Part shown: positions 23,379 to 30,514 of the stretch, piece after piece
How the letters are laid out: each line of letters starts with the position of its first letter
Numbering within the stretch: position 1 is the first letter of the stretch
Origin: Arcobacteraceae bacterium
GTDB lineage: Bacteria > Campylobacterota > Campylobacteria > Campylobacterales > Arcobacteraceae
Direction: 5' to 3'
Assembly: GCA_963662945.1 (NCBI GenBank)
Contig: OY759974.1
Location: forward strand, 2,240,001 to 2,304,000
DNA length: 64,000 nucleotides
Notes under the pieces: generated by a model
Told to the model about the DNA's origin: nothing
Seen by the model: the letters and a program-made list of their open reading frames with translations, nothing else
Database searches by the model: none
Made by a program: the position numbers and the translations under genes

Positions 23379-24086
23379 TTATGATAGTAAATTGGAAGCG
23401 AGTTTTTCCAACCCTTTTTTTTGTAAGATGTGTAAATTGCTCATTTGTGTATATTCAAAAGTTTTTTCTTTGTAATATTCTAAGATTATTTTATCAATTT
23501 GTTCTTTTTGAGAGATGATAGTTTCTAGAAAACTTTTCATCTCACTTGTTTCAAACTCATCAAAATTTTGAAGTTTTAAAAAAAGTGCTTCTAAAAGCTC
23601 TTCATTTATGAAGTTTTGTGCTTTGTTTAGAAATTTTGTGGCTTCTGCTTCTACAGCGTAAATTTCATCATTCCATTTTCTTCCGTGTATTAGTTGGTCT
23701 ACTGCAACATCAATGAAAACAGGGACAATATCTAAAACTTGATTGAGTTCTGTAAAATCATTATCAACCAAATCCCGAAATAACATTCGTGTTCTATTGC
23801 GTATTTTTTTTCGTAATTCTTCATTTTCTATAACTTGTGGATTAAGTATTTTAAATCGTTCCAATGCTCCTAATCGTGAGTGATTAAATGCCATAATAGA
23901 AACAAGTGGATGAGGGTCTTTGATTTGGTCTGGATGGGAACCAGATGGTCTACAAAATGCCCAGTAGAGTCTTGCTTCCATATCTTTATGGTTTATATAT
24001 TTTTTATCTCCAAGTGCTTCAAAGTTCTCTTCATCTTTAAGTGCTTCCACTTCCTCTTTATAGGTTAAATTGAATAACTCTTCCAT
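23379..24086 (-). CDS. Hypothetical protein, translationally linked to vWA gene
   Basis: About 235 aa, helical and acidic; overlaps vWA gene end; ATG 24086 assumed. Confidence 0.75.
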   Translation of the reverse strand: MEELFNLTYKEEVEALKDEENFEALGDKKYINHKDMEARLYWAFCRPSGSHPDQIKDPHPLVSIMAFNHSRLGALERFKILNPQVIENEELRKKIRNRTRMLFRDLVDNDFTELNQVLDIVPVFIDVAVDQLIHGRKWNDEIYAVEAEATKFLNKAQNFINEELLEALFLKLQNFDEFETSEMKSFLETIISQKEQIDKIILEYYKEKTFEYTQMSNLHILQKKGLEKLASNLLS

Positions 24087-25284
24087 AACTTTCAAACTTT
24101 GTTAAATTTTTTTTATCACTTATGATAAAGAGGGTTTTTGACACTAATGGATGGGTAATATCAAATTCTCCATCACTTAAAACCATCAAAAGGTTCTCAC
24201 TTCGTATATCTGTATTTTTAAGATATCGTAATACTTCGTTGAAGTTTGTACCTCCATCACTTTTAGGAATATATAAATCTTTCTCTTGCAAAGGATTAAA
24301 ACTATCAAAACTAATGATATGGTCACTTTTTACAAACCTGTCAAAAGGCAAAATTGTTACTTTGTATTCATAAAATCCTTCACATATATCTTGAATGATA
24401 CCTAGAAATTTTTTATACTCTTCAAGTGTAACAGAACTACTACTATCTAAAGCTATATAAACCTCAATAAGCTCATCACTTTTTTTTGTCCCTGGTAGAT
24501 AAAGTCCAGTATGTATATATCTTTTATTTGGTCTAGAAAATGTTGTTTGCTTTTCAAATAAAGATGCTGTAAGATACTCTTTAAGTACATCTTGTAAATT
24601 AATATCAGGACGAATAAGTGTATCTATTTCTATTTGAAGTCCACCATATTTATGTGAAGTTTTTTTTGCAATAGTGAGTGCTTGTATAATAATACCATCT
24701 AGTTTTTCTTGGTCACCTTGAGAAGTTTTTTCATCTGGAACTTCTTCTAAGTCTAATTTTGAATTATCATAGATGTAAGCATTTTTATCCCCATCTGGAT
24801 CAGGTGCTACTTTTGCCTCACTGCTTTGTTCTTCATCACTATTTGAGTCTTGATTTTGTTCCTCTTCCTCTTTTTGATAGAGTATCTCATAGACCTCTTC
24901 AACACATTTATCTTTTAAGTCCAAGTCAAGTATCTCATCAGTTGGTTTTATTCCAACATTTTCAAAGGTATCAAGAATATTATTGATAACCAAATCACAC
25001 GCTTGATTCCAGATATACATATCTCTTGTTTTTTGTCGATAGGGATGTTTTAGGACAATATGAAGAAGGGTGTGTGCATAAAGGTAAGTGATATTTTCAT
25101 CACTATATTTTTCTAACTTTTCTAAATCAATAGTTATTTTTGCCCCATTTGTTTGAAAAGCACTATTTGTATTTTGTTCAAAAGTTGTAGGGATTGATAA
25201 TGCAAGGACTGATAAAAAAGGGTGGTTAAATAAAAAATTTACCCTTAATTTTGCAAATAATTCTTCATAATTTTTATCAGTCAT
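24058..25284 (-). CDS. DUF2201-type peptidase-like + vWA domain protein
   Basis: N-terminal HPF...TNG...AHTLLH...H, acidic linker, RPNKR..YLPG, MIDAS DSSSS...GGT...SDG. Confidence 0.85.
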   Translation of the reverse strand: MTDKNYEELFAKLRVNFLFNHPFLSVLALSIPTTFEQNTNSAFQTNGAKITIDLEKLEKYSDENITYLYAHTLLHIVLKHPYRQKTRDMYIWNQACDLVINNILDTFENVGIKPTDEILDLDLKDKCVEEVYEILYQKEEEEQNQDSNSDEEQSSEAKVAPDPDGDKNAYIYDNSKLDLEEVPDEKTSQGDQEKLDGIIIQALTIAKKTSHKYGGLQIEIDTLIRPDINLQDVLKEYLTASLFEKQTTFSRPNKRYIHTGLYLPGTKKSDELIEVYIALDSSSSVTLEEYKKFLGIIQDICEGFYEYKVTILPFDRFVKSDHIISFDSFNPLQEKDLYIPKSDGGTNFNEVLRYLKNTDIRSENLLMVLSDGEFDITHPLVSKTLFIISDKKNLTKFESYGRVIQFNL

Positions 25285-25315
25285 AGTATCACTTTTATTG
25301 GTTTACTTTATAGTA

Positions 25316-25331
25316 TGCAATAAATGTGCCG
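25316..25331 (-). promoter_or_regulatory. Sigma54-type promoter of vWA gene
   Basis: CGGCAC-ATTTA-TTGCA (GG-N10-GC), inside a 10-bp inverted repeat 25305-25341. Confidence 0.65.
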
Positions 25332-25341
25332 ACTATAAAGT

Positions 25342-27888
25342 TTAAGAAAGTAAATCCATTAATTCCTCATTTTTATTAAATTCCGCATAATCATATGCTC
25401 TCTTATTCTGAATAGTATAATAATCTATATTTGCACCTTTTCCCAATAATCTTTTTACTAAATATGTATCATTAATTTCCGTTGCAAAAACTAAAGGTGT
25501 AAATCCATTTCTTTCTCTAATATCAACATTGACTAAATTATCTAACAATAAATCAAAAATTTTATAATAATTGTCTTTTTTTTGTTTATAGCTAAAATTG
25601 TGAAATTCTTTTCTAAAAAATTTTTGAAACTCTTTTTTATCTAGACCTACATTATCAAAATCTAAAGTTATCTCATTGTCAAAAATATTATTGATTAGTG
25701 GATTAGCTTTAATGATTTTACTTAATTCTTCTTTTGATGAAGATACACTTCTCGATGCATATTCTAAAAAATTTGAATAATCTTCTGAATTTAAATTTGA
25801 TAATCTTATGAGTTGAATACAATAATATAAATATGAAACTTCATCCAAAGTACATTTCTCATTTAAATCTACATTATTATCAAGAAGTAGTTTAACAATA
25901 TTTACAAAACCTTTTTCAATGGCATAGGACATTGCAGTCTCTTTCTTTTTTACTAATTTGGCATTCAGTGCTTCTATAGACATTTTAGGAATTAACAGTT
26001 CCATTATCTCTATTTGTTTTTCTGTAGTATGATAAGTGCTTCCAAAAGAATATATTAATGCAGTACAGTTATCATTTAGTTTTTGTTCATTTACATCTAC
26101 ATTAGCCTTTAAAAGTTTTTTAACATCATCTATTTTAGATAATTGACAACAATGCATAAGTTGAGTAATTTTGTTAGGTAAGCCTTTTTTTATCCATTTG
26201 TTAGGATTATCAAAATCAATTTTTATATTTTCCAAATCTTTTGTATTTACTGCTGCAAAATTAGAAGAAATAAAAAGATTAGATGATTCTTTAGACCCTG
26301 GAAATAAATTTTTAAAATAAATATCAAATTGTTTTTGCATATCTAAAAGAAAATGTTGATTAATTTTTTCTGGTAAACTTTCTAAAAGTTTGTAAAAGTA
26401 TGCTTGGTTATAAAATTTTCTAAAAGGACTACTTGCTTTATCTAAGTCAATCTGTACATTTCTTGTACTTTGTGATGAAACGAATAAACCTTCTCTAATA
26501 ATATCTTTCATATTTATACCAACAACATTTTTACCATATTTAAGTGCTTCTAAATAATATTCAGTAGATTTCTTATATTCTCTTTTTTGTGCATAAAATC
26601 TAGCTTTCATAAATAGACAATAGGGATTGTATTCAATATCAAACCTCTCTTCTACTTCTTTTAAAGCTTTAAAAAATTTAGATTCTGTATGTTCATCTTT
26701 TTTATTAGTAGGTGCAACACATTCATATAATTTTGAAGTAAGTTGTGCGTATTCAAAAAATGTTTTATCTATATCCTTTTCATCTATACTTATAACAGTA
26801 GATAAATCAAAATCTTTATAAAAAAAGTCGATAGGTAAAAATGAGCTAATTTTAGCGATAAATGACTCTTCTTCCATTTTATACAATATATCAAATTTAT
26901 TTCTATTATTTAAAATATATTCTTGCATCTCTTTTGCTTTATTAGAAGAATCACTATTTTTAACAAAATAGTCTAACATATAGAATAAATCAAAATTATT
27001 GTAATAATATTGTTGTAGATACAATTCTAATAAGTCAGATTCTTTTGTTTGCAGGTTTTGTTTAAACATTTCAAGTTTATTAGTTATCTCTAAATAACTA
27101 AGCATTGTAATTGTTTTATAATGTTTAACTAATAAGTTTGTTAGTTCAGTACCAAAATATTCTTTTGATTTTGAATATAGGTATTGAATAATTTTGGCAA
27201 TTTTAAATAATGTATTTAAATCAATTTCAGAAAATTTATTTGAAAACTTTGCTAATCGTGAAAGTATATTGATATGTTCTCGATTAGGAAGATTTTTACC
27301 ATTAATCCAATTATTATAATCCTCTTTTTTTAAATTATAGTCTTTGTAATTATCATCTAAAATTTTATATATTTCATCTTTTAAACTAATATTTTCTTCA
27401 AAAGTAGATTCTAGTAGCTTAAAAAGTTTTTGTATAGAATTTTCTTTTTCATCTGGCAAAATCGAATCTATCAAAGTTAATTCTCTTTTTTGTTTTAATA
27501 ATCTATCAAAGACTAAATGACTTAAAAAAGGAATAAATAAATTAATTGCAATTAGAAAATCTAATTGTTTTTGGGATGTAGCTAATGTTTCATTATGAAG
27601 TTTATAAAGATTATAAAATGAAAGAAATTCATTTATTAGCTTTTCATAATATTCATACTCTTTATTATTTGAACTATTAAAAAAAGTATATAAAACATCT
27701 TCAATAATTTTATTTTGAGTATCAAAATATTCTTGTGCAGATATTTCATCTTCTTTTATAAATCTCTGATAAGTTTTTGTATCATCTTTTTGATATATAT
27801 CTAAGCTCTTAATTAAAAAGTCTAATATAAAACCATTAGTTCTATGTTTTGAAAATTCTATTCTTATTTTTTGCACTCTCTTGTCCAA
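25342..27888 (-). CDS. 848-aa ankyrin-repeat protein with TPR-like and HTH-like segments (viperin-associated)
   Basis: C-terminal ANK repeats (TAMSYAIEKGFVNIVKLLLD, GFTPLVFATE..LVKRLLGKGA), TPR-like helix pair, NWINGKNLP motif; start uncertain. Confidence 0.8.
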   Translation of the reverse strand: MDKRVQKIRIEFSKHRTNGFILDFLIKSLDIYQKDDTKTYQRFIKEDEISAQEYFDTQNKIIEDVLYTFFNSSNNKEYEYYEKLINEFLSFYNLYKLHNETLATSQKQLDFLIAINLFIPFLSHLVFDRLLKQKRELTLIDSILPDEKENSIQKLFKLLESTFEENISLKDEIYKILDDNYKDYNLKKEDYNNWINGKNLPNREHINILSRLAKFSNKFSEIDLNTLFKIAKIIQYLYSKSKEYFGTELTNLLVKHYKTITMLSYLEITNKLEMFKQNLQTKESDLLELYLQQYYYNNFDLFYMLDYFVKNSDSSNKAKEMQEYILNNRNKFDILYKMEEESFIAKISSFLPIDFFYKDFDLSTVISIDEKDIDKTFFEYAQLTSKLYECVAPTNKKDEHTESKFFKALKEVEERFDIEYNPYCLFMKARFYAQKREYKKSTEYYLEALKYGKNVVGINMKDIIREGLFVSSQSTRNVQIDLDKASSPFRKFYNQAYFYKLLESLPEKINQHFLLDMQKQFDIYFKNLFPGSKESSNLFISSNFAAVNTKDLENIKIDFDNPNKWIKKGLPNKITQLMHCCQLSKIDDVKKLLKANVDVNEQKLNDNCTALIYSFGSTYHTTEKQIEIMELLIPKMSIEALNAKLVKKKETAMSYAIEKGFVNIVKLLLDNNVDLNEKCTLDEVSYLYYCIQLIRLSNLNSEDYSNFLEYASRSVSSSKEELSKIIKANPLINNIFDNEITLDFDNVGLDKKEFQKFFRKEFHNFSYKQKKDNYYKIFDLLLDNLVNVDIRERNGFTPLVFATEINDTYLVKRLLGKGANIDYYTIQNKRAYDYAEFNKNEELMDLLS

Positions 27889-27952
27889 TCAATTTTCTAT
27901 ATTAAATTTTGCATAAATCATAAAATTCCTCAAATACAATAAAGGAGTGAAG

Positions 27953-28786
27953 ATGAATGAAATAACAGTTAATTGGCACATTATACAAAAGTGTAACTAT
28001 AAATGTTATTACTGTTTTGCAAAATATGATAATTATGAAAAAAAAGAAGTTCATAATTCAAAAAAAGAAATCGAAGGTCTATTAAGAAAAGTTTATCAAT
28101 CTTTCAAAAAAGAGTTTAAAGATCATAGTATCAGATTAAATATTGCTGGAGGTGAACCAACATTATCTAAAAATTTAGATTTTATTATTAAATCTGCATA
28201 TAAAATTGGATTCAATATATCTATAATAACTAATTCTTCAGTTTTAACAACAAGATTTATAAGTGAAAATGCAAAACATATATCTATGTTTGCAATAAGT
28301 ATTGATAGTTTAAATAAAAATACAAATTTAAAAATCGGAAGAATAAGTAATAAAAACTTTTTAGAAATTTATCAGGTTTTAAAAAATATCAGTCTTTTAA
28401 GAAAATATAACCGTTCTATTAAAATTAAAATCAATACAGTAGTCAATAACTATAATTATTCGGAGTATATAGGTGATTTTATTAGTCTTGTAAAACCTGA
28501 CAAATGGAAAGTATTTCAAGCATTAAGTATTAATAGTAATGAAGAATATTGTTCAAAAGAGCAATTTAAAACCTTTATATACAATCACAAGAACTTGAAT
28601 ATTAATACATTTTCTGAAACAAATGATGAGATGATAGATTCATATATTATGATAGACCCTTATGGAAGATTTTATCAAAATAGCGGGGTAATATATCAAT
28701 ATTCTAAATCCATACTTGAATTAGAATCAGATGAAATTATAAATCATGTTAAATTTGATTTAAAAAAATATAAAAATAGATATTAG
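27953..28786 (+). CDS. Prokaryotic viperin (antiviral radical SAM enzyme)
   Basis: VNWH...CNYKCYYCF, NIAGGEP, SIDS, KINTVVN, KWKVFQ, SYIMIDPYGRFYQN; SD AAGGAG before ATG 27953. Confidence 0.92.
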   Translation: MNEITVNWHIIQKCNYKCYYCFAKYDNYEKKEVHNSKKEIEGLLRKVYQSFKKEFKDHSIRLNIAGGEPTLSKNLDFIIKSAYKIGFNISIITNSSVLTTRFISENAKHISMFAISIDSLNKNTNLKIGRISNKNFLEIYQVLKNISLLRKYNRSIKIKINTVVNNYNYSEYIGDFISLVKPDKWKVFQALSINSNEEYCSKEQFKTFIYNHKNLNINTFSETNDEMIDSYIMIDPYGRFYQNSGVIYQYSKSILELESDEIINHVKFDLKKYKNRY

Positions 28787-28795
28787 GAGTTAGAA

Positions 28796-29485
28796 ATGAA
28801 AGACGAAAAAATAGCAGTATTTTTTGACTGTGAGAATATATCAGCTAGTTATGTAGATTCAATTTTTGGTGAATTAGCAAAATATGGAGATGTGATTATA
28901 AAACAATCTTTTAAAGATTGGGGAAATTCTAACAATAAATCATGGAATAGAGAGCTACATGAAGAGTTTGCCATTGAGGCTATTCAAGTTTTTTCTGCAA
29001 GAGGTGCTAAAAATAGTTGTGATATGAGGATTCAAAGAGCTATAAATGAAACAATTAATCATAAAAAAATAGATATTATTGTTTTAGTATCGAGTGATAG
29101 TGACTTTAGAGATTTAATCATAAATGTTAAAGCTAATGGTTTTAAAACTATTGGCTTTGGAGAATCAAAGACTTCATTATCTTTAAAAAGTGCATATTCC
29201 ACTTTTATAGAACTTCCTATAAAAGAACATTATGAAAAAAAGAATGATAAAGAAGTAATTAAATTATTAAAAGAAGCTATACAAAAAACAATTAAGGAAG
29301 GTGACTATTCTTTAGTTTCTCAAATGGGTAACTACTTAAAAAATAAAAATTCTTCATATAATCCAAAAAACTTAGGTGCTACTACTTGGGGAAATATAAT
29401 TAAAAAATTTCCTAATTACTTTGAATGGAGTCATCTAGATAAAGAGAAAAGTCAGATGATTGTAAAGTTAAAAAAAATATTTTAG
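28796..29485 (+). CDS. NYN-domain (PIN-like) nuclease with C-terminal OST-HTH/LOTUS
   Basis: VFFDCEN, KNSCD, VSSDSDF acidic motifs; LOTUS-like SQMGNYL...YNPKNLG..TW. Confidence 0.88.
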   Translation: MKDEKIAVFFDCENISASYVDSIFGELAKYGDVIIKQSFKDWGNSNNKSWNRELHEEFAIEAIQVFSARGAKNSCDMRIQRAINETINHKKIDIIVLVSSDSDFRDLIINVKANGFKTIGFGESKTSLSLKSAYSTFIELPIKEHYEKKNDKEVIKLLKEAIQKTIKEGDYSLVSQMGNYLKNKNSSYNPKNLGATTWGNIIKKFPNYFEWSHLDKEKSQMIVKLKKIF

Positions 29486-29506
29486 TACTAAATAGGGGAT
29501 AATATA

Positions 29507-30514
29507 TTAAATAATATACTCCCCATATTTCTCCAACCACTCCTCAAATTCTTCTAATTCCGCTATTGCCTCATCTTTGATAATCAAATCTTTTATTAAC
29601 ATTACAGAAAATTCTACTGGAAGTCCTTTTGAATATGCAAAAAGGTTTTTTGCTTGATTTGTATTGTTATATTTTTCAATAAGTGCAGCAGTTAGAGCAT
29701 AAAGACTACTTGGTTCTGTTGGTACATCAGAAGAAAGCCCCTCTAAAATAGCATCTATATCAGGCAAGGTTTTATACACTTTTACAAATGAGGTAAACTC
29801 AATTCCTGCTCCATATCCAACAGTTCCGTATACTATTGGAGAGATTTTACCAATCTCATTTGTATTTTTTAATATGTTAGATAACATAGCCCAAGCTCTT
29901 GGTGTACAAAATGCTGGATTAGTTTCACTTGAACTAGGAACTTCGCTACTTAGTAAATCTGGGCGAAATCCTAAAAAACCTATGATAAAAGGATGAATTT
30001 CATTTTTGATAGCCCAAGCTTTAAAGTCATCAAACTTTGCTTCTAAAACTATATGTACCATTCTATTTATAAGTGGACTTGGAAGTTTAAAAACAATCCC
30101 TTTGTCATCTATTTTATTCCCTGCACATACAATTGCCCAATTTTTCGGCATAGTATATTCACCTATTTTTCTATCAAGTACAAGTTGATAAATTGCAGCT
30201 TGTACTGAAAGTGGAGCAGAGTTTAATTCATCTAAAAAAAGTATCCCAGAAGAGTCTTCATCACTTGGTAAAAATACTGGTGGCATCCATATTGTTTGAT
30301 TATTTTGTATAGTTGGAATACCTCGTAAATCTACAGCATCAAGTTGAGAAAGTCGTACATCTATTATCTCTAGGTCATTTTTCTTTGCTATATCATTGAC
30401 TATATATGATTTTCCAATCCCTGGACTTCCGTGTATAAATACTGGTGTATCTGTTTGAAGTAAGATATCAAGTTGATTGTATAGTTCAGCAGTTCCAATT
30501 GCAGGTGTTATCAT
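29507..30514 (-). CDS. MoxR-like AAA+ ATPase
   Basis: Walker A GSPGIGKS, DLRGIP, Walker B LFLDE, AGN, LINR, TPRAW. Confidence 0.9.
   Translation of the reverse strand: MITPAIGTAELYNQLDILLQTDTPVFIHGSPGIGKSYIVNDIAKKNDLEIIDVRLSQLDAVDLRGIPTIQNNQTIWMPPVFLPSDEDSSGILFLDELNSAPLSVQAAIYQLVLDRKIGEYTMPKNWAIVCAGNKIDDKGIVFKLPSPLINRMVHIVLEAKFDDFKAWAIKNEIHPFIIGFLGFRPDLLSSEVPSSSETNPAFCTPRAWAMLSNILKNTNEIGKISPIVYGTVGYGAGIEFTSFVKVYKTLPDIDAILEGLSSDVPTEPSSLYALTAALIEKYNNTNQAKNLFAYSKGLPVEFSVMLIKDLIIKDEAIAELEEFEEWLEKYGEYII

Follow-up and report, generated by a model that had tools for sequence, protein, structure and literature searches.

A recurrent, mobile cassette of Campylobacterota with a prokaryotic viperin, an interchangeable putative RNase and a conserved repeat-protein partner

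Prokaryotic viperins (pVips) are usually treated as enzymes working alone. Two questions stand about them, what keeps their activity in check and why they have RNase genes for neighbours so frequently, the latter being raised explicitly in the main text of bioRxiv 10.1101/2023.12.08.570793. Both questions arise for a stretch of 64,000 nucleotides (nt) from an Arcobacteraceae bacterium (GenBank assembly GCA_963662945.1, contig OY759974.1, positions 2,240,001 to 2,304,000), hereafter the window, in which a pVip gene is followed by a gene for a putative NYN and LOTUS-like RNase and lies head-to-head with a gene for a large repeat protein, here named the partner protein. Are these three genes a unit, or neighbours that happened to be carried in together? 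As set out below, the module is real, recurrent and mobile, its RNase is interchangeable, and the repeat-protein partner of pVip is previously undescribed.

The three open reading frames (ORFs) reported in a first-pass annotation of the window were all found and are all intact; at their longest they span 25342-27888 on the minus strand (partner protein, 848 amino acids, aa), 27947-28786 on the plus strand (pVip, 279 aa) and 28796-29485 on the plus strand (NYN/LOTUS-like protein, 229 aa). The central gene, which encodes 277 aa from its conserved ATG (27953..28786, plus strand), had been read as a radical S-adenosylmethionine (SAM) enzyme with a viperin signature and is, by its sequence, a member of the viperin family and not MoaA. 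In fact, it scores 301.9 bits with the NCBIfam model NF038283 (viperin_w_prok; equivalog cut-off 180) versus 68 bits with MoaA, the best non-viperin model (cut-off 284), and 291.7 bits in PADLOC, where the top model is that of viperins 'not associated with kinases'. The alignment with the solved viperins 6b4c, 9dfw, 7n7i, 5vsl and 7n7h runs from residue 4 to residues 272-276 and takes in the C-terminal extension (E 2.7e-31 to 7e-27), and the CxxxCxxC motif (C14, C18, C21) and the GGE motif (G66, G67, E68) are invariant in 16 aligned pVips, with P69 nearly invariant. It is the sole such gene in the 2.5-Mb single-contig genome, where just one of 12 radical-SAM matches exceeds the cut-off.

The next gene (28796..29485, plus strand) starts 9 nt downstream, and the overlap that had been noticed between its Shine-Dalgarno sequence and the pVip stop codon is present, with TAG at 28784-28786, AGGAG at 28785-28789 and ATG at 28796; judging from this arrangement, the two genes are probably co-transcribed and translationally coupled. 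In Pfam searches the product is a putative RNase consisting of an NYN domain (PF01936, residues 5-140, 85.4 bits, cut-off 24.2) and of a LOTUS/OST-HTH-like segment (PF12872, residues 149-210), which in the window protein reaches 23.2 bits, just below the cut-off of 23.8, and exceeds it in the homologues of L061 (29.9 bits) and L043 (28.8 bits); the precomputed Pfam column gives PF12872 for many relatives, and the earlier designation NYN-LOTUS is sustained with a tail that is best called LOTUS-like. Residues D11, D76, D101 and D103, which we take from the NYN/PIN literature and MARF1 to be metal-binding, are invariant in 13 NYN relatives. No match at E <= 0.01 was obtained for this protein among PDB sequences.

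The first-pass annotation had named, as a result that would refute it, that the three genes never occur together elsewhere, and a survey of gene neighbourhoods gave the opposite result. A scan of close-relative genomes with pVip gave only five loci. Genome and metagenome scans yielded 26 loci with a member of the partner family (the window, L020, L021, L023 with L019, L032-L036 and L037-L053), each of which was probed by tblastn for pVip, NYN and HicA. A pVip gene adjoins the partner gene in 16 of the 26, and in nine of these 16 the third gene is NYN (the window, L020, L019 with L023, L037, L040, L041, L042, L043 and L046), giving eight trios beyond the window. Three others (L021, L044 and L045) have a HicA gene that overlaps or abuts the pVip stop (Pfam HicA_toxin 33.7-37.5 bits, cut-off 27), which suggests that an RNase, and not NYN in particular, is what this position requires; no RNase is seen in two (L033 and L035), and a contig end cuts the last two (L038 and L039). 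Five of the 26 loci have flanking DNA and no pVip, namely L032, L034 and L049, whose genes are intact, L036, which is a fragment, and L047, where only 525 bp are available upstream; another five (L048 and L050-L053) are C-terminal pieces and are uninformative.

The linkage is retained at considerable distance. L046 holds all three genes at 34%, 46% and 37% identity (partner, pVip and NYN respectively), but there the pVip-NYN operon and the partner gene converge, and the pVips of L033 and L035, which lie beside the most distant partner relatives, are about 33% identical to that of the window and score 247 bits with NF038283. The identities of partner and pVip to the window copies drop together (Spearman 0.94, n=14 loci, which are kin and not independent samples), as inheritance as a unit would predict. 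The surroundings of the sister cassettes differ: integrase and MobC-like genes (L040), an integrase fragment (L043), HTH_17 and DnaB-like genes (L037), polA/aldo-keto reductase and flhB/fliK (L044), rnhB and aroC/rnc (L021), and PIN and C5 methylase genes (L046).

Within a fixed draw of 401 Campylobacterota genomes, to which all counts out of 401 refer, the partner family occurs in five and pVip over its cut-off in seven, and the two are adjacent in three genomes of three genera (G000, G078 and G240). A search with the N-terminal domain of the partner gave 44 clusters among 5.8 billion proteins and 53 representatives among 1.84 billion; the clusters that carry an organism name are all from Campylobacterota (Aliarcobacter butzleri, Arcobacter spp., Sulfurimonas gotlandica GD1 and Campylobacteraceae). 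For 22 of the 44 clusters a pVip cluster with an equal-sized longest contig was found among the 120 of 330 listed, including records of A. butzleri, Arcobacter sp. CECT 8983 and S. gotlandica GD1, which is indirect evidence of linkage matched by eye. A phage origin was considered and rejected, as neither tblastn of the N-terminal domain against 50,697 phage records nor a search of IMG/VR viral contigs gave a match.

Some of these loci present further features. Many metagenomic copies of the three genes are on contigs of 4.3-4.8 kb, about the size of the cassette, which fits a module with strain-variable flanks at whose ends assemblies break. In L040 (2183-2932) the pVip match begins at residue 36, the ORF is split and the cluster-binding motif is missing, and this may be a decaying copy or a metagenome assembly error. 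The Sulfurimonadaceae-type loci L033 (12930-13382) and L035 (510-962) have a conserved 150-aa ORF of no known family convergent to the diverged pVip, which might fill the third slot there. At L022 (4137-11392) a pVip 70% identical to that of the window is the last gene of a same-strand run in which a PDC-S46 candidate (673 bits) comes first and is succeeded by two unknown genes (295 and 264 aa); this run is adjoined by a tyrosine integrase gene, and the NYN gene after pVip is a frameshifted remnant (residues 3-92). A 298-aa gene neighbouring the pVip-less partner genes of L032, L034 and L049 was considered as an alternative effector and rejected, having no Pfam, NCBIfam or PADLOC match; its neighbours in the Atlas are Campylobacterota hypothetical proteins and SLT-type transglycosylases (0.93-0.96), and by this similarity it looks like a housekeeping SLT-type transglycosylase.

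In the window the cassette is an insert of about 4.24 kb (25270..29510) between the intact genes of a DUF2201_N/DUF2201 VWA protein (24058-25284, minus strand) and of a MoxR-like AAA ATPase (29507-30514, minus strand), with a GC content of 0.21-0.25 over 25001-29000 versus about 0.29-0.31 in the flanks. The 8.5-kb region was compared with 41 genomes (its own, 24 of the same genus and 16 others of the order). Five related genomes (G006, G009, G010, G017 and G023) have the empty site, with VWA and MoxR directly abutting, and homology to them stops at about 25269 and restarts at about 29505-29511; in G006 the VWA gene has its start codon within the 3' end of MoxR, the two overlapping by 20 nt. 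On this comparison, MoxR/VWA is a coupled operon that has been split by the 4.24-kb insert. The entire cassette is found at the same site and 91% identity in another species, G013, the sole carrier among the 40 other genomes searched. No direct repeats of attachment-site or target-duplication type were found at the insert ends beyond chance AT-rich matches. As had been remarked earlier, no nucleotide kinase is adjacent: none is in or beside the insert, whose neighbours are the MoxR-like AAA ATPase and the DUF2201 VWA genes. The genes further out are of housekeeping type (APH-type kinase, NTP-transferase, HAD hydrolase, Mqo, MatE, AraC/GyrI, aminotransferase and YitT), which makes the cassette a solitary insert outside any defence island.

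The insertion has also replaced the first five VWA codons, and the VWA gene, with five new N-terminal codons, now lies 57 nt past the partner gene behind a stable stem-loop (z -3.7), so that its expression may now depend on read-through from the inserted partner gene. This stem-loop (25289..25341, minus strand), just downstream of the partner stop and upstream of the remodelled VWA start, folds at -13.0 kcal/mol (z -3.69, with 0 of 200 shuffles as stable) and is not a canonical terminator because no U-tract follows the stem. At the other end, an imperfect palindrome (29495..29524) between the convergent NYN and MoxR genes, over the MoxR stop codon, may form a bidirectional stem-loop (-11.5 and -13.6 kcal/mol on the two strands, z about -1.7); its fold signal is weak because 10-11 of 200 shuffles fold as well, and the same structure is present in G013 and an analogous one in G015. 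In other species of the genus the site between MoxR and VWA is occupied by another insert. The one in G015 measures about 524 bp (L018 3177-3700) and encodes a 4HBT thioesterase of 138 aa (Pfam 66.9 bits) on the opposite strand, a palindrome spanning the MoxR stop codon, and G011 and G020 are alike by gap size; the junction, compared in this way, looks like a place of repeated insertion. A 238-aa ORF (23379-24095, minus strand) downstream of VWA matches no Pfam or NCBIfam family; several relatives, of which G006, G009, G013 and G023 are examples, retain it with a DNA identity of 71-78%.

The partner gene and pVip are read divergently. Their distance had been put at about 60 bp, which agrees with the 58 nt between the longest ORFs and not with the 76 nt between the conserved starts. 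The latter were recognized in an alignment of 12 homologous intergenic regions as GTG 27876 for the partner and ATG 27953 for pVip; therefore the partner has 844 aa and the shared control region (27877..27952) has 76 nt. This region contains the conserved blocks ATTTTCTATAT and CATAAAATT and an AAGGAG before the pVip ATG, and across the 12 aligned loci its length is near-constant and the two blocks are kept; the blocks may be back-to-back -10 elements. A promoter scan (45 sites versus 40.2 expected) and a terminator scan (1 terminator-like site versus 0.7 expected) are uninformative in such AT-rich DNA.

The partner gene (25342..27876, minus strand) encodes 844 aa from the conserved GTG, which is also the length of the database protein P0001 of the family, and 848 aa when read from TTG 27888. 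The description given to it at first, a giant ankyrin protein, was right as to the 848-aa ORF and the presence of ankyrin repeats, but these occupy only the C-terminal third (residues ~577-845 in 848-aa numbering; 25354..26160, minus strand), as found with Pfam (Ank_2 68.9 bits, cut-off 27.3, and also Ank, Ank_3, Ank_4 and Ank_5, all within residues 577-845), a PDB profile search and Foldseek. Residues 1-570 have no Pfam match at E <= 0.01. An AlphaFold2 model of the full length (predicted local distance difference test, pLDDT, 84.3; predicted template modelling score, pTM, 0.77) is all-helical ahead of the ankyrin repeats, with no strand-rich core, and its Foldseek matches are ankyrins and DARPins only, as those of the PDB profile search are ankyrins only. 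Modelled alone (pLDDT 82.6, pTM 0.83), the N-terminal part had no Foldseek match at E <= 0.001 in PDB or BFVD. Two segments can be distinguished in it: an all-helical part in the AlphaFold2 model (residues ~1-365; 26782..27876, minus strand), and a TPR-like helical repeat segment found with VIA-align (residues ~369-530; 26287..26772, minus strand). The motif T-S-Q-K-Q-L-D-F near residue 100 is nearly invariant in alignments of the family and is, on the grounds of this conservation, a likely functional site.

The segment of residues ~369-530 resembles TPR proteins with VIA-align Z of 8.0-9.3, values that are in the common-arrangement range for helical repeats; the best is 4gcn_B (Z 9.3, root-mean-square deviation, rmsd, 3.4, 122 aligned residues), and the TPR sensor of a STAND protein (6mfv_A, Z 8.7-8.8) and NprR (5dbk_B, Z 8.4) are among the others. 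The VIA-align rows mainly cover residues 367-535, so residues 1-365 are barely probed by them, and Pfam TPR models gave no match to the protein at E <= 0.01. A likeness to RRNPP-type regulators extends to the TPR-like part only (NprR and PlcR, Z 7.5-8.4, with an rmsd of 12.8 for PlcR), there is no Pfam HTH, and an HTH_3 cluster lies near the protein in the Atlas at only 0.75. In particular, Pfam, NCBIfam and PADLOC scans of the 848-aa protein found no NTPase, nuclease or HTH family and none of the central P-loop NTPases of STAND/Avs type (NACHT/NB-ARC-like). Hits to PADLOC PDC-M72A and NCBIfam MzaA are due to the ankyrin repeats only and were not used. A complex prediction of partner residues 370-848 with pVip (ipSAE 0.00 and 0.00, mark 0.32) counts neither way.

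The explanation preferred for this set of genes, held with somewhat more belief than doubt, is a mobile anti-phage module composed of a pVip that makes a chain terminator, an interchangeable RNase and a repeat protein acting as sensor or gatekeeper. From its family membership, pVip would use [4Fe-4S]/SAM radical chemistry to convert a nucleoside triphosphate (NTP) into 3'-deoxy-3',4'-didehydro-NTP (ddhNTP), terminating phage RNA chains. The NYN and LOTUS-like protein, made from the same transcript, would be an RNase giving a second hit on RNA, as operon structure and slot-swapping suggest. The helical/TPR/ankyrin protein, to judge from head-to-head linkage and co-divergence, would act through protein contacts and would either sense infection or restrain pVip or the RNase until needed. 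We infer the part of the partner as sensor or regulator and that of NYN in defence from gene linkage only.

There are also relatives of the partner, of 530-614 aa, that lack the ankyrin repeats. A 530-aa relative with 25-29% identity is encoded on a nearly identical pair of Arcobacter sp. plasmids and on pAFAEC of Aliarcobacter faecis, three plasmid records in all. It is head-to-head with, and 81 nt from, a 42-aa ORF, behind which comes a Thg1-family gene of 248 aa, and integrase/recombinase genes lie on either side; among these megaplasmid loci are L090 (5013-7563, CP134847.1) and L091 (5013-7563, NZ_CP053838.1). The Thg1-like gene scores 29.8-31 bits with Pfam Thg1 (cut-off 29.2) and is annotated as Thg1 family in RefSeq. 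A search of the 401-genome sample with the ankyrin-less homologue returned only the five genomes already known. With pVip in the cassettes and the Thg1-like gene on plasmids, there are thus at least two distinct NTP-using enzymes that the N-domain family faces. It is tentatively proposed, as a possibility considered doubtful, that the helical/TPR(/ankyrin) proteins form a novel family of modular sensors or gatekeepers in immunity, placed head-to-head with interchangeable NTP-using effectors, these being pVip (with NYN or HicA) on Campylobacterota chromosomes and mobile elements and the Thg1-like 3'-5' nucleotidyltransferase on Arcobacter plasmids. If true, no prokaryotic viperin system that is gated or senses infection would have been described before this one, which would also be a bacterial parallel to the repeat-domain control of antiviral RNases.

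A number of observations weigh against the three-part anti-phage module, and most of them speak for the strongest alternative, in which pVip is a self-sufficient single-gene defence, the class assigned to it by PADLOC and NCBIfam, and NYN and the partner are separate passengers of the same small mobile island that share its descent. Four of the seven pVip genomes in the 401-genome sample have no partner gene (G073, G079, G099 and G292), two of them with an internal stop, and neither has L022; these five pVips are without either companion. Conversely, intact partner-family genes without pVip are found in L032, L034 and L049, and, as L033 and L035 carry no RNase, this component is not essential to the partner-pVip pair. 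NYN and LOTUS-like genes are present in 132 of 401 genomes (E <= 1e-10), mostly at 27-40% identity, and relatives as close as 69% (G216 and G265) and 52-53% (G275 and G402) stand alone in genomes without pVip. In a tree of 37 NYN rows, all eight pVip-linked rows fall within one 17-row clade (100/100) together with nine unlinked rows, the remaining 20 rows, all unlinked, forming its sister clade; the pVip-linked rows are not one clade and need three changes. The NYN gene thus derives from a mobile sub-lineage within an RNase family that is widespread, and it has no fixed tie to pVip. In addition, many linked loci are close kin, of roughly six lineages, so that the counts overstate independence, and the word 'regulator' has no structural basis beyond the repeats because the partner shows no DNA-binding or catalytic domain. 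An obligate trio is not supported, since NYN is replaced by HicA or absent and relatives of NYN and of the partner occur without pVip.

The passenger explanation is nonetheless judged rather unlikely. The linkage of partner and pVip holds down to 33-36% identity and outlasts both the change of gene order in L046 and the replacement of NYN by HicA; it is seen in at least six different genomic contexts with the head-to-head spacing conserved, and the chance adjacency of a gene present in 5 of 401 genomes with one present in 7 of 401 in three genera is very unlikely.

An arrangement of toxin-antitoxin type is improbable. Here the RNase (NYN or HicA) would be a toxin and the partner or pVip its inhibitor, released on infection, with the chain terminators of pVip acting in parallel; repeat proteins are typical binders, the HicA genes of L021, L044 and L045 have no adjacent HicB antitoxin gene, and the published pVip-hicA and pVip-relE operons, as presented in the main text of bioRxiv 10.1101/2023.12.08.570793, pose the same question of how an RNase is restrained. 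Evidence against such a role comes from L033 and L035, which retain partner and pVip without an RNase, from the NYN relatives that occur alone without any partner, so that NYN need not be toxic, and from the ankyrin-less relative, which is paired with a Thg1-like gene and not with an RNase. A non-antiviral module, in which the viperin-like enzyme and the RNase would have a housekeeping role in nucleotide metabolism or RNA modification, is highly improbable, since the breadth of the NYN and LOTUS-like family (132 of 401 genomes), which points to a function in cellular RNA for the family at large, is set against a patchy and mobile distribution (pVip in 7 of 401 genomes, the cassette in 1 of 40 relatives), a low GC content and insertion into an operon, the integrases, MobC and other defence genes beside sister copies, and a score above the equivalog cut-off of the antiviral family.

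The cassette is a compact natural test case, with one viperin, a slot that takes either of two unrelated RNases and one conserved partner made of binding repeats only. Should either the viperin or the RNase be gated by the partner, the locus would reveal how chain terminators are kept from poisoning the transcription of the cell that makes them, and the partner would be a new sensor family in bacterial immunity; if the partners are dispensable, it is one more pVip in Campylobacterota, a phylum in which no tested pVip was found in the literature.

Among known systems, the TPR sensors found in STAND/Avs proteins and RNase L with its ankyrin domain share TPR-like or ankyrin repeats with the partner, repeats that in those systems serve as ligand or protein sensors gating an effector, and 1wdy ('Crystal structure of ribonuclease'), presumably RNase L, is among the matches of the ankyrin region. 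They differ in that the partner of the window has neither an NTPase domain nor a fused effector, its effector genes being separate and divergent, and the likeness is one of repeat folds only. MARF1-type NYN and LOTUS RNases and the bacterial defence candidate HEC-09 share with the window protein an NYN nuclease domain in which the aspartates are conserved and to which a helical or RNA-binding module is attached. The eukaryotic MARF1 is far larger. HEC-09, in the sections of bioRxiv 10.1101/2024.01.29.577857 that treat it, gave no protection versus the phages tested and has an N-terminal part unlike that of the window NYN protein.

As neighbours of pVips, kinases and ankyrin proteins had been named at the outset; the linkage to kinases is in print, whereas for ankyrin neighbours no such paper was found. 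According to the main text of bioRxiv 10.1101/2023.09.13.557418, 12% of bacterial viperins have a kinase (CMPK2-like) within three genes, so that there, too, viperins keep functional partners through gene linkage; the window cassette differs in having no kinase, in keeping with its top PADLOC model, and the terms ankyrin and NYN do not appear in that main text. A closer parallel is given by the pVip-hicA and pVip-relE operons, which are HicA classes 9 and 10 in the main text of bioRxiv 10.1101/2023.12.08.570793 and have an RNase gene directly beside pVip, exactly the order pVip-then-HicA of L021, L044 and L045. With respect to the pVip-HicA operon (HicA class 10), the window has NYN and LOTUS-like domains in this slot, a third and unrelated RNase fold; NYN and ankyrin are absent as terms from the main text of that preprint, whose supplementary tables might list such loci. 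More generally, no paper linking viperin to ankyrin or NYN in phage defence was found in the literature, a listing in supplementary tables being possible.

The nearest relatives remain the pVips themselves (NF038283, PADLOC pVip), of which the primary paper is reportedly that of Bernheim et al. in Nature in 2021. The window protein is like them in its curated score, its radical-SAM and SAM-binding motifs and its full-length alignment, and conversion of NTP to ddhNTP would be expected of it on these grounds. It differs from them in its company, since pVips are catalogued as single-gene or kinase-associated systems and this one belongs, with no kinase, to a conserved module of three genes, the other two encoding a putative RNase and a large repeat protein.

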